Below the pieces are notes generated by a model, which did not search any database, was not told the DNA's origin, and saw only the letters and a list, made by a program, of their open reading frames with translations. Shown here piece after piece: positions 2,123 to 5,260 of a stretch of 5,347 bases of DNA (positions within the stretch are counted from its first letter, which is position 1; each line of letters begins with the position of its first letter). The stretch lies in IMG/VR virus record IMGVR_UViG_2778261462_000003. One strand, written 5' to 3'. Position numbers and translations under genes: made by a program. This DNA is from a virus (taxonomy: Duplodnaviria; Heunggongvirae; Uroviricota; Caudoviricetes).

Positions 2123-2565
2123 GTGCACCGGCAACCATTCTTGATATGTGCTGTGGCAGCCGCATGTTCTGGTTCGATAAGTCTGACGAACGGGCGATAT
2201 TCAGCGATATCAGAAAAGAAGGATACACATTACGCAATGGGAGACGCTTGATTATCAGCCCTGACATTATCGCAGATTTTCGTGCATTATCATTTGCAGA
2301 CGCATCTTTTTCGATGGTTGTATTAGACCCTCCGCATCTTGAGAGTGTTGGTGATAACGCCTGGATGGGAAAGAAATATGGACGGCTGAATAAAGATGCC
2401 TGGCGTGATGATTCGCGACAGAGATTTAAAGAAGCCTTTCGGGTGTTGAGGCCGCACGGCGTTCTGATTTTTTAATGGAATGAAACGCAAATACCGGTAA
2501 GCCAGATTCTGGCACTGACAGACAGAAAACCTGTTATCTGTCAACGAACAGGGAAAAAACGATAA
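2119..2565 (+). pseudogene. SAM-dependent DNA (adenine) methyltransferase-like gene, disrupted by an in-frame TAA and probably 3'-truncated
   Basis: The 118-aa track ORF (2119-2475) has a glycine-rich LDMCCGSRMFWF segment and DPPH (gac cct ccg cat, about 2326-2337), fitting the (D/N/S)PP(Y/F/W/H) motif IV of amino-methyltransferases. The TAA at 2473-2475 is followed in frame by 29 more sense codons (WNETQIPVSQILALTDRKPVICQRTGKKR) to a TAA at 2563-2565. A single change AAA to TAA would restore ...VLIFKWNETQ. The total is still too short for a complete enzyme. Confidence 0.5.
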
Positions 2566-2714
2566 AACCCACTGGATTATTTTTATGAAAGAGGCATCCA
2601 GTGAGTAGATTCGTAAGGCTACAGATACGTATATCTGAATAATTAAATTCAGTTCTGTAAATAAAATTTAATCCTTAACCGGATGGATTTCTGCACCCTC
2701 AGAACATCAGGAGG

Positions 2715-2730
2715 CCGCCCGAAAGGGCGG
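2715..2730 (+). promoter_or_regulatory. GC-rich hairpin with GAAA tetraloop between a Shine-Dalgarno sequence and a start codon
   Basis: CCGCCC (2715-2720), GAAA (2721-2724), GGGCGG (2725-2730): a perfect 6-bp stem. AGGAGG sits immediately 5' at 2709-2714 and the ATG at 2738, so the linear spacing of 23 nt is too long unless the hairpin folds. Confidence 0.35.
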
Positions 2731-2737
2731 TAGTGAA

Positions 2738-2920
2738 ATGCGAAAGTTCAAAATTATTATTGAAACGGGAATAGCTGGTGGAGATTTTGAGGATGTATTC
2801 GAAGTGGACGATGACGCAACACCTGAGGAAATTCATGACGGAGCATAAGAAATTTTCTTTAACTACTGCAATTACTCATACCACGAAATAAAAGACGATG
2901 AGGAAGAACAAAGTGGCTGA
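2738..2920 (+). pseudogene. Short acidic ORF interrupted by an in-frame TAA (ORF A)
   Basis: ATG at 2738, MRKFKIIIETGIAGGDFEDVFEVDDDATPEEIHDGA, TAA at 2846-2848, then 23 in-frame sense codons (EIFFNYCNYSYHEIKDDEEEQSG) to TGA at 2918-2920. Translated by hand; below the track's length cut-off. No recognised family. Confidence 0.3.
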
Positions 2921-3089
2921 TTTTTGTTCAGCTAAATATAACATCAGTTTTGAAGAGCGGGATGAACTATTAATGGACTATGGTGAGTTACGCGGTGGAA
3001 GTGCTGCTGATGTCGAATCCTAGCGTGATGACTATGAAGCGGGAAAAACTCCGGTCGAAGCATATTGTGATGAGTGGGGCGATGAATGA
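2898..3089 (+). pseudogene. Short ORF interrupted by an in-frame TAG (ORF B), coupled to ORF C
   Basis: ATG at 2898, MRKNKVADFCSAKYNISFEERDELLMDYGELRGGSAADVES, TAG at 3021-3023, then 21 in-frame codons (RDDYEAGKTPVEAYCDEWGDE) to TGA at 3087-3089. That TGA overlaps the ATG of the next ORF (3086-3088) in an ATGA junction. Confidence 0.3.
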
Positions 3090-3373
3090 GCGAGATTAAT
3101 TATCAGGAAGGGCATGAAACGGCGGGGCAAGCAAAACCAGTGGCATGGCGATATCGCTACGTGAAAAAAGGCGTTACGGACTTTCAGGGGAAGTAGTGGT
3201 CTGGTGACTGGAAATATGTACCGAAAAAAGAGGATTGTAACGACAGGCCGAACTATCAAATTCAGGCCTTATTCACTGCCTCACCAGTCCCAGTTACATC
3301 AGAAGAACTGGTTAAAGCTGTGCACTTTTATGAACAACTAAAACGCGAAAATCCACCAACATCCGGCAACTAG
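3086..3373 (+). pseudogene. 95-codon ORF interrupted by an in-frame TAG (ORF C)
   Basis: ATG at 3086, MSEINYQEGHETAGQAKPVAWRYRYVKKGVTDFQGK, TAG at 3194-3196, then 58 in-frame codons (WSGDWKYVPKKEDCNDRPNYQIQALFTASPVPVTSEELVKAVHFYEQLKRENPPTSGN) to TAG at 3371-3373. Looks like a real small phage protein with one nonsense codon. Family not recognised. Confidence 0.35.
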
Positions 3374-3627
3374 ATTAATGGATTAACTATGTCGGTTAAA
3401 CGACCAGCCAACTGAAAAAGCGGAAACCTGATTACAGGTTGCCAGATAAGGCAATGAGCTACCTGGCGCGGAACGGACTGATAAGTATGGGGAATGTTTT
3501 ACGATGAACCTTTAGACTAAAGAGTTTGTAACGCTATGTAAGTGATTTTTTCTGGTTTAGATATTTATATGTCCGGCCAAATTGAGGTGTGTTTAAATGT
3601 AATTGCACATTGATTGTAGGAGGAATA

Positions 3628-3807
3628 ATGAAAAACGCATTGCAGTTTTTGTTTGTTGCGTTCTGGTTGTTCGCATCATGTATGCCCATCATCTTCACAG
3701 CAAGGTATATGGAAAAAGTTGATGTTTTGATATTAATATTTGGATATATAAATGCCCTTTTTTTAGGGGTGTTCATGGCGGTCATGTGCATTGAATACTG
3801 GCGGTAA
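3628..3807 (+). CDS. Small predicted membrane protein, 59 aa, two hydrophobic helices
   Basis: ATG at 3628 is preceded by AGGAGG (3619-3624), a strong Shine-Dalgarno at good spacing; the track ORF 3589-3807 is in the same frame. Product MKNALQFLFVAFWLFASCMPIIFTARYMEKVDVLILIFGYINALFLGVFMAVMCIEYWR has two hydrophobic segments. Upstream 3540-3620 is strongly AT-rich, with TGTAAT at 3598-3603 as a possible -10. Confidence 0.5.
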   Translation: MKNALQFLFVAFWLFASCMPIIFTARYMEKVDVLILIFGYINALFLGVFMAVMCIEYWR

Positions 3808-3908
3808 ATACAGCGAACTCCATTGGTTTAGTTGGATATTTACTGTGCTGGACAAAAACGGTTTGCGGGGAAATCTTAGTTAAGTAGAATGACTGCGGGT
3901 GCTTGAGG

Positions 3909-3944
3909 CTATCTGCCTCGGGCATGGACACCAACGGCAGATAG
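3909..3944. repeat. Perfect 9-bp inverted repeat separated by 18 nt
   Basis: CTATCTGCC (3909-3917) and GGCAGATAG (3936-3944). The left arm overlaps a competing 5-bp stem, GAGGC (3905-3909) with GCCTC (3915-3919), so the two structures are mutually exclusive. Confidence 0.4.
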
Positions 3945-4037
3945 AGAAAAGCCCCAGTTAACATTACGCGTCCTGCAAGACGCTTAACATTAATCTGAGG
4001 CCAATTTCATGCTAGACACATGTAGGTTAGCCTCTTA

Positions 4038-4053
4038 CGTGCCGAAAGGCACG
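4038..4053 (+). other. Second GC-rich hairpin with GAAA tetraloop
   Basis: CGTGCC (4038-4043), GAAA (4044-4047), GGCACG (4048-4053). Same architecture as the hairpin at 2715-2730. Not followed by a T-tract. Confidence 0.3.
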
Positions 4054-4084
4054 GAGAAGCAGGCTATTGTTAACACCAAGCTGT

Positions 4085-4141: not shown

Positions 4142-5260
4142 ATGATCAAAGAGACTGTTACGATGAGTCATAAGGAACTCCACCGACTTCAGATTATTCA
4201 GGAACAAGCTGCGGCACGCATTGGCATTTCTATTCGGCAGGTTAAACGTCTGGTGCAACGGTATAGAAATGAAGGGCCTTCTGGTCTGGTTTCCCACCGA
4301 CGTGGAAAGCGTCCTAATAATTCCTTTTCTACTGAATTCAGAGCAACAGTAATTTCACTCCTCAAAGGCCGTTACGCTGATTTTGGACCTACGTTTGCGT
4401 GCGAAAAATTGCGCGAGATACACGGTTTATCTTTATCCGTTGAAACTCTCAGAAAGTGGATGATAGAAGAGGGGTTATGGCGTGAACGCCGTCGTAAAAT
4501 TGCCCGTATATATCAACGCCGCATGCGACGACCATCTTACGGTGAACTGATCCAGATTGATGGCTCACCTCATGACTGGTTTGAAAATCGAGGCCCCAGA
4601 TGTACACTGATCGTTTTCATTGATGATGCCACCAGTGCGTTGATGGCGTTGCGTTTTGTGCCTGCTGAAACAACCCGGGCTTACATGGAAACCCTCCGGG
4701 GTTACCTTAATGATCATGTCGTACCGCTCGCTCTCTACTCTGATAGACACAGTATATTCAGGGTAAATAACCCAGAGCGGGAAGGTGAGCTGACCCAGTT
4801 CACTCGTGCGATAAAGACACTGGGCATCGAGCCAATCCATGCCAACAGCCCGCAGGCAAAAGGGCGGGTAGAGCGCGCCAATCAGACACTACAGGACAGG
4901 CTGGTCAAAGAAATGCGGCTTCAGAATATCAGTGATATTGAAACAGCAAATGCATGGTTGCCGACCTTTATTGAAGCCTATAACAACCGGTTCGCTACGT
5001 CGCCTCGTACTACTGATAATGCTCATCTTGATGTGCACCATTCTGAAGAGGAACTGGGTTATATCTTCAGCCTACAGGCGAAGCGCGTTCTGTCTAAAAA
5101 TCTCACTTTCCAGTACAAAAGCAGTGCGTTTCAGGTACGCAGTGAGGGCCGGGGATATCGACTTAGGCATTCGGTTGTTACTGTATGCGAGAACTTTGAC
5201 GGTGAAATTAACGTTCTGTATGAACCGCCCCGGGTTTCCTGGAGAGTGTTTTATCTGTGA
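4142..5260 (+). CDS. DDE transposase with integrase-core (rve-like) catalytic domain, IS481/ISNCY-like
   Basis: 372-aa track ORF. N-terminal helix-turn-helix-like region (GISIRQVKRLVQRYRNEGPSGLVSHRRGKRPNN), then the catalytic triad in its usual contexts: IQIDGSPHDW, LALYSDRHSIF and KGRVERANQTLQDRL. Family assignment is from memory of ISNCY/IS481-type N-termini (MS.KEL.RL.IIQ...GLV..RGK.SN). The stop at 5258-5260 may be premature if homologs are longer. Confidence 0.75.
   Translation: MIKETVTMSHKELHRLQIIQEQAAARIGISIRQVKRLVQRYRNEGPSGLVSHRRGKRPNNSFSTEFRATVISLLKGRYADFGPTFACEKLREIHGLSLSVETLRKWMIEEGLWRERRRKIARIYQRRMRRPSYGELIQIDGSPHDWFENRGPRCTLIVFIDDATSALMALRFVPAETTRAYMETLRGYLNDHVVPLALYSDRHSIFRVNNPEREGELTQFTRAIKTLGIEPIHANSPQAKGRVERANQTLQDRLVKEMRLQNISDIETANAWLPTFIEAYNNRFATSPRTTDNAHLDVHHSEEELGYIFSLQAKRVLSKNLTFQYKSSAFQVRSEGRGYRLRHSVVTVCENFDGEINVLYEPPRVSWRVFYL

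Follow-up and report, generated by a model that had tools for sequence, protein, structure and literature searches.

Our comparative analysis indicates that the Shine-Dalgarno (SD) sequence and the GC-rich hairpin found ahead of an ATG at position 2738 of the window (the whole 5,347-nucleotide stretch of Caudoviricetes DNA analysed here) form, judged by alignment of related copies, the 3' terminus of an intergenic cassette of about 100 nt that is conserved among lambdoid prophages of E. coli. The hairpin of this cassette most likely represents another natural case, the second after phage T4, of a hairpin-bridged translation start. To our knowledge, hairpin-bridged SD sites have been known essentially from two T4 genes. 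Unlike the split SD of T4, the putative lambdoid site recurs as a portable cassette. With moderate confidence, we regard SD, hairpin and start codon as a split translation initiation region bridged by the hairpin; comparison with the T4 gene 38/25 type of split site supports this as the best reading of the element.

The features of the window on which the analysis is based are listed in Table 1. The original prediction, made from the letters of the window, had placed an AGGAGG at 2709-2714, a hairpin and the ATG at 2738 in this order, had counted 23 nt between SD and ATG, with 16 nt in the hairpin, and had pointed to T4 gene 38 as a comparable case. All of these coordinates and distances proved exact and the T4 precedent is real (PMC3014915). 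The anatomy was thus described correctly, while the wider unit, a widespread portable cassette of which this anatomy is the end, was missed. The bridging function that had been proposed gained support from the occurrence of the same SD-hairpin ahead of at least six unrelated gene families, with a register of 6-9 nt unless the gene has an SD of its own; on the other side, the gene behind it in the window is a pseudogene and no covariation was found in the stem.

Table 1. Positions of the cassette, its parts and associated features in the window.
Feature	Position	Strand	Remarks
Whole conserved cassette	2635-2737	+	Begins stop-rich and AT-rich and runs up to the base preceding the ATG; 56 distinct copies aligned
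Inverted repeat CTGAAT-AATTAA-ATTCAG	2635-2652	+	Carries TGA/TAA/TAA/TAG; predicted to be fully paired
Near-invariant core AATCCTTAACCGGA(G>T)GGATTTCTGCACCCTCAGAACATC	2670-2708	+	Invariant columns of the 56-copy alignment
Shine-Dalgarno sequence AGGAGG	2709-2714	+	Duplex with the 16S rRNA 3' end, -9.2 kcal/mol
All-GC 6-bp stem, CCGCCC (2715-2720) / GGGCGG (2725-2730)	2715-2730	+	GAAA loop, 2721-2724
Spacer TAGTGAA	2731-2737	+	7 nt, A/U-rich; no SD-like sequence; anti-SD duplex -0.4 kcal/mol
DUF7167 start codon ATG	2738-2740	+	Same N-terminus (MRKF/MRRF/MRKI) in cassette-free homologues
DUF7167 pseudogene	2738-2920	+	60 codons; in-frame TAA at 2846-2848
Second hairpin CGTGCC GAAA GGCACG	4038-4053	+	Stem-loop of the Rfam sok/hok match

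The accepted working range between SD and start codon in E. coli is about 5-13 nt, and the linear spacing of 23 nt lies outside it. Folding of the hairpin, which is located wholly between SD and start, brings the distance to 7 nt. The isolated 16-mer CCGCCCGAAAGGGCGG has a fold energy of -12.4 kcal/mol. In ViennaRNA predictions the hairpin was kept in both the minimum free energy and the centroid structure, and a G2714-U2731 wobble extended the stem to 7 bp (centroid, -15.5 kcal/mol); in a context of 156 nt the predicted probability of being unpaired was near 0 for the stem bases. Perfect hairpins with a 6-bp stem and a 4-nt loop occur four times on the + strand of the window, against 1.38 expected. 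When the window was shuffled 2000 times with its dinucleotides kept, 131 of the shuffles had at least one perfect hairpin with a GNRA loop, 16 had at least one with an all-GC stem, and a single shuffle had one that combined both. Over its full length, the 71-nt region had an unremarkable folding z-score (-1.73). The spacers hold no further SD (anti-SD affinity of -0.4 and +0.4 kcal/mol, versus -9.2 kcal/mol for AGGAGG). The one other SD-like string is the weak GGGCGGU of the 3' arm, which would reach -5.9 kcal/mol at an ideal distance of 7 nt if the stem opened, and which the predicted fold locks in the stem. The predicted folds also sequester the SD in part, through the upstream CCCUC or UCCU, and leave it with a probability of being unpaired of about 0.4.

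In T4, folding shortens the spacing from 22 to 5 nt in gene 38 and from 27 to 11 nt in gene 25, and mutations that destabilize the stem reduce initiation, as established by mutational and probing experiments (PMC3014915). The arrangement studied here shares with these two genes an SD that is too far from the start in linear sequence, a hairpin lying entirely in between and a workable folded spacing, as well as the placement between two cistrons of a phage operon and the conservation among close relatives (PMC3014915). The two systems belong to different phage groups, temperate lambdoid phages as opposed to T-even phages, and have no sequence relationship. Each of the T4 sites is tied to one gene, whereas the cassette is repeated in front of at least six unrelated genes and in about half of the E. 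coli genomes; moreover, the T4 cases have been proven by mutation and probing, whereas the lambdoid cassette is a candidate from sequence comparison. A folded hairpin inside a ribosome binding site is also found in the "split ribosome binding site" of E. coli thrS, where the 30S subunit accommodates the operator hairpin without melting it (PMC3936740). In thrS, however, the hairpin precedes the SD, is flanked by two single-stranded regions of ribosome contact and serves as the operator for ThrRS, while the hairpin of the cassette occupies the interval between SD and AUG.

By analogy, the 16-nt GC/GAAA hairpin would fold locally and very stably in the polycistronic early mRNA, and its closing pair would set AGGAGG 6-9 nt (7 nt in the window) from the AUG. 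The anti-SD of the 30S subunit would then pair with AGGAGG and the AUG would enter the P site, with the hairpin bulging from the path of the mRNA. We infer that ribosomes initiate in this way and that the hairpin helps initiation beyond being merely tolerated. An added benefit would likely be insulation, as a self-contained stem would keep the SD and the A/U-rich start free from long-range pairing. Such insulation, whatever gene recombines behind the stem, would be an asset to a cassette that moves from gene to gene.

The cassette has the general layout [stop codons] CTGAATAATTAAATTTAG...AATCCTTAACCGGAGGGATTTCTGCACCCTCAGAACATC-AGGAGG-CCGCCCGAAAGGGCGG-TARTGAA(AA)-ATG. The 56 distinct copies aligned came from blastn searches of phages, from inspection of loci and then from a pattern scan of IMG/VR. 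Partial matches in the phage blastn search were of two kinds: in the first, identity extended up to the ATG and was followed by different genes; in the second, it began only from about position 2707. When 5426 complete E. coli genomes were searched with a 77-nt query (2664-2740), 2604 of them gave matches, 4249 in all, at 84-100% identity; a single genome had as many as seven, and O157:H7 strains have three copies. The cassette is also present in the viable phages ArgO145, mEp460 and PhiR42_1. At least 10 different gene ends precede it, and at least six unrelated families follow it, including DUF7167, DUF4014 (a 72-aa membrane protein), MLTLK and MQEIKE/MQDIKE proteins, two or more families starting with MTELTK/MAELTK and a homologue of the Q antiterminator (PF06530). 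A short form lacks the upstream 60-100 nt and consists of an upstream TAA, TGTC only, and then AGGAGG, hairpin and start; it stands ahead of four different genes. The short form keeps TCAGGAGG, the hairpin and the start right after a stop codon, and therefore SD, hairpin and start represent the minimal travelling unit.

All three frames are closed by stop codons in the inverted repeat at the 5' end of the cassette. The upstream gene of relatives terminates within this repeat (...ACT GAA TAA), and the stops lie 59-130 nt before the SD. Its first bases are overlapped by a perfect hairpin with a 6-bp stem and a 4-nt loop (CAGATA CGTA TATCTG, 2622-2637, + strand). Two cassettes may occur about 1 kb apart in one operon, the short form before DUF7167 and the long form before DUF4014, as in loci L002 (at 1508 and 2556), L024 and L048. 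Paired cassettes of this kind are direct repeats and could drive deletions; one locus, L036, carries a fusion of two start regions. A near-identical E. coli-type cassette followed by DUF7167 was also found in a metagenome-assembled genome (MAG) labelled Collinsella sp. (L193) and in the Actinobacillus phage vB_Apl-pPE4 (H22); in these two records, E. coli prophage DNA is probably a contaminant or was binned wrongly. One further occurrence of TCAGGAGG+CCGCCCGAAAGGGCGG, at 11452-11476 of an unrelated environmental viral contig (L154), was rejected as a coincidence: it is situated inside a 218-aa ORF (reading QEAARKGG) directly 3' of a 401-aa ORF. This coincidental occurrence means that the motif alone is not diagnostic.

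The register between stem and start was maintained across families with unlike spacer sequences. The distance from the stem to the start codon is 6 nt in DUF4014, 7 nt in DUF7167, 8 nt in MLTLK, 8-9 nt in MTELTK and 9 nt in MQEIKE proteins; the folded spacing in these five families thus falls between the 5 and 11 nt of the T4 genes. The sole longer case is the Q homologue, with 11 nt, and this gene carries a separate GGAG at 7 nt from its ATG. Further information on the start codon comes from DUF7167. A protein search of genome contigs gave three loci, too small a set to compare genes with and without the cassette broadly, and tblastn against phages was used in its place. Cassette-free homologues that share the N-terminus occur in Klebsiella phages, Enterococcus phages and a Bacilli MAG. 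Those of the Klebsiella phages have GGAGG or GGGAG 7-8 nt upstream of the same MRKF/MRRF start codon.

The copies vary in the SD, the loop and the stem. The SD reads AGGAGG in 131 cases, AGGAGA in 16, GGGAGG in 10 and CGGAGG in three, with three singletons, in a sample that was partly ascertained with RGGAG. The loop reads GAAA, GGCA or TAAA. Pairing of the stem was kept in 96.7% of the cells of the 56 distinct copies, with 13 cells unpaired. One-sided changes that keep the pair account for 31 cells, 23 of which are C>U substitutions on the 5' side of the stem (alleles CCGTCC, CCGCCT, CCGTCT and CTGCCC), and one C>U was seen in the 3' arm (GGGTGG). These C>U alleles keep G-U pairs on the + strand only. 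The alternation of G and A at 2714 likewise keeps pairing with U2731 (G-U in 44 copies, A-U in eight). The excess of C>U could in part be due to a mutation bias of the coding strand (deamination), and by minimal count of events the difference, about five C>U versus three G>A, was not significant. A covariation test of the 56 copies found no double changes and did not exceed the column-shuffle control. Since the copies are 84-100% identical, the conservation of the cassette could reflect recent spread. Three weakened stems were encountered, namely CCGCCA/GAGCGG (-4.6 kcal/mol), CCGTTC/TGGCGG (-3.3 kcal/mol) and CCACCC/AGGCGG (-2.6 kcal/mol). The ORFs behind them are intact, no link between a weakened stem and a dead downstream gene was seen, and a strong stem is consequently not obviously indispensable.

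The near-invariant core upstream of the SD raises the question of regulation. It contains UCCUUA (2672-2677), which is identical to the 3' end of 16S rRNA, and CCCUC (2696-2700), both able to pair with the SD; RNAalifold paired the UCCU of the core with the AGGA of the SD, and folds of single sequences paired CCUC with GAGG. No covariation supporting a pairing of the core with the SD was found among the copies. The helices that UCCUUA, CCCUC and GGAGGG could form with the SD would exclude one another, and on these predicted pairings the core may act as a translational switch. In the window, a private G>T change at 2684 converts the consensus GGAGGG of the core to GGATGG; it creates the ATG of a 16-codon upstream ORF, MDFCTLRTSGGRPKGR (2683-2733, + strand), which has no SD, reads through the SD and the hairpin and stops at the TAG just past the stem. 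The consensus reads AGG at this place and has an in-frame TAA upstream. A leader peptide was therefore rejected on grounds of conservation: the ORF is absent from nearly all other copies and is probably meaningless.

An extended form of the bridging model, which we put forward tentatively from the pattern of sequence conservation, takes the cassette of about 100 nt as a self-contained mobile "translation plug". It would combine a hairpin-bridged SD with an SD-sequestering switch or a binding site and would co-regulate unrelated accessory genes across prophages. The cassette would be exchanged by recombination and would offer its hairpin-bridged SD to any accessory gene behind it, and the switch or binding site would lie in the near-invariant core (UCCUUA, CCCUC, GGAGGG).

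Regulation might, however, be the whole purpose of the hairpin. It could be an element of mRNA processing or stability, or a translational operator bound by a protein or RNA, its position serving regulation and not bridging; it could, for example, be a barrier to exonucleases that protects the upstream cistron and is combined with an RNase E cut in the spacer, or a part of an SD-sequestering switch with UCCUUA and CCCUC. The core is more invariant than the arms of the stem and holds two anti-SD-like tracts predicted to pair with the SD, an A/U-rich single-stranded spacer adjoins the stem, and the several copies per genome, with two per operon about 1 kb apart, would allow co-regulation. We nevertheless consider this explanation unlikely, as a stabilizer or an operator needs neither a position between SD and AUG nor a fixed register of 6-9 nt; the short form would appear to work without the upstream core, and the variable loop argues against a loop-specific binding protein. 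Such a role is in any case compatible with bridging and does not exclude it.

Equally doubtful is the proposal that the cassette is a recombination linker or a recently spread hitch-hiker and that its hairpin has no specific role, weak initiation taking place downstream of it through the A/U-rich leader or through the GGCGG of the 3' arm after breathing of the stem. Conserved boundary sequences in the mosaics of lambdoid phages have been proposed before. This explanation agrees with that proposal and with the joints of the mosaic, which are found exactly at both ends of the cassette next to many different neighbours. It would also account for the identity of the copies, which is similar to that of the flanking genes, for the absence of covariation among the 56 copies, for the weakened stems with intact ORFs and for the deletion that fused two start regions (MRKF-RKNK..., L036). 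It leaves unexplained, however, why a perfect SD abuts the stem in nearly all copies and why the register of 6-9 nt is held across independent junctions with different spacers. In addition, a stem of -12 to -15 kcal/mol between the sole SD and the start should be strongly deleterious for the many intact genes behind it unless it is accommodated.

A role in transcription, as a boxB-like N-utilization hairpin, as a pause hairpin of RNA polymerase at the start codon or as the remnant of a terminator, is highly improbable. A GNRA-type loop on a GC stem resembles the boxB of lambda, and the hairpin shares with it a short GC stem, a purine-rich loop of this type and the location in an early phage transcript; yet no boxA-like sequence was seen by eye, the genomic position does not fit (in several operon contexts the element has distal accessory genes on both sides, and is not found just past an early promoter), the loop is a tetraloop and not a pentaloop and varies to the non-GNRA GGCA, and the register with the start codon is fixed. 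The GG at the end of the stem and the UG of the AUG fit by eye the consensus pause motif (G-11G-10...Y-1G+1) with a spacer of 7 nt only, whereas the spacers range from 6 to 9 nt. As for a terminator, the identical 16-mer followed by a T-run forms the stem of typical intrinsic terminators in many unrelated viral contigs, but here the hairpin is followed by UAGUGAAAUG on the + strand and by CCUCCUGAUG on the - strand, with no U-tract on either, and a gene starts 7 nt further on. Scanning of 2400-3000 for promoters and terminators revealed no promoter in the cassette and did not call the hairpin a terminator. The cassette had no Rfam match either: at E<=1, a cmscan of the whole window returned nothing at 2635-2740, and its hits were a sok match (3897-4068) and two chance-level matches elsewhere. 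Identity with known prophage small RNAs was also rejected, in view of their location; AgvB and AsxR map 3' of PR', and the Pas genes lie among late or structural genes, unlike the sites of the cassette. A full-text search of the literature found no description of the sequence of the 16-mer or the cassette, or of DUF7167.

If the bridging model is correct, the tolerance of the 30S subunit for a folded spacer is exploited more widely than has been thought, and the example comes from temperate phages, where the site is reused before many genes and resides in about half of the sequenced E. coli. For annotation, gene callers and ribosome binding site models that score the linear SD spacing will mis-score or mis-start DUF7167, DUF4014 and other genes. 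For phage evolution, the cassette provides a concrete sequence at which the joints of lambdoid mosaics cluster. It would furthermore offer synthetic biology a naturally insulated and portable ribosome binding site.

The window, itself an IMG/VR contig, is 100% identical to a stretch of many E. coli chromosomes, including those of ATCC 8739, W and LY180, and represents a decayed Qin-like lambdoid prophage. In ATCC 8739 the order of the prophage genes is dicA, dicC, a YdaT-family gene, a replication-region gene, DUF977, a truncated SAM methyltransferase, a gene labelled by RefSeq as "DUF7167 family protein (internal stop)", a frameshifted hypothetical gene and a partial ISNCY transposase, followed by ydfW, flxA and relBE-hokD. 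The gene behind the cassette in the window matches Pfam PF23768 (E = 8e-14; 51.9 bits, with a cut-off of 24.4) and PHROG 1997 (E = 2e-29), and the TAA within its frame makes it a pseudogene member of DUF7167. The ORF of 36 aa (2738-2848) that the original prediction had called ORF A is accordingly a mechanical ORF, which comprises the first 36 of the 60 DUF7167 codons and is ended by this TAA. With a nonsense codon in the gene behind it and the prophage decayed, the element in the window is a relic of a functional design, rather than a site at which translation of a 36-aa protein starts.

Further pseudogenes are represented by fragments downstream, the short ORFs at 2898-3023, 3086-3196 and 3204-3341 (+ strand, in a run of 2898-3370). 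The first of these matches the tail of the 66-aa MRKFRKNK... fusion protein of L036, and 3086-3370 is similar to the C-terminal portion of proteins of the MTELTK family, which elsewhere lie directly 3' of the cassette. An unannotated hydrophobic ORF of 59 aa (MKNALQFLFVAFWLF...) was noted at 3618-3807 (+ strand). It had no match in PHROG and is preceded by a canonical AGGAGG 4 nt 5' of its ATG (3628), that is, by a normal start, unlike the split one.

The recurrence of the hairpin architecture at 4038-4053, which had also been predicted, turned out to be superficial. There the hairpin is located 5' of its GGAG (4053-4056), instead of separating an SD from a start codon, and falls within a full-length match to the hok/sok family of Rfam (RF01794; 3897-4068, + strand; 104.1 bits against a gathering threshold of 59, E = 1.3e-23, model positions 1-157), where it corresponds to the final conserved stem-loop of the model. 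The hairpin at 2715 is unrelated to it, the likeness being confined to a GC stem and a GAAA loop. The hok/sok match is not annotated in the RefSeq record of ATCC 8739. The AUG of the model reads AUU in the window (4066-4068), and an ISNCY-family insertion sequence comes next, with its transposase at 4142-5260. The insertion sequence thus appears to have inactivated a type I toxin-antitoxin locus at 3897-4068.
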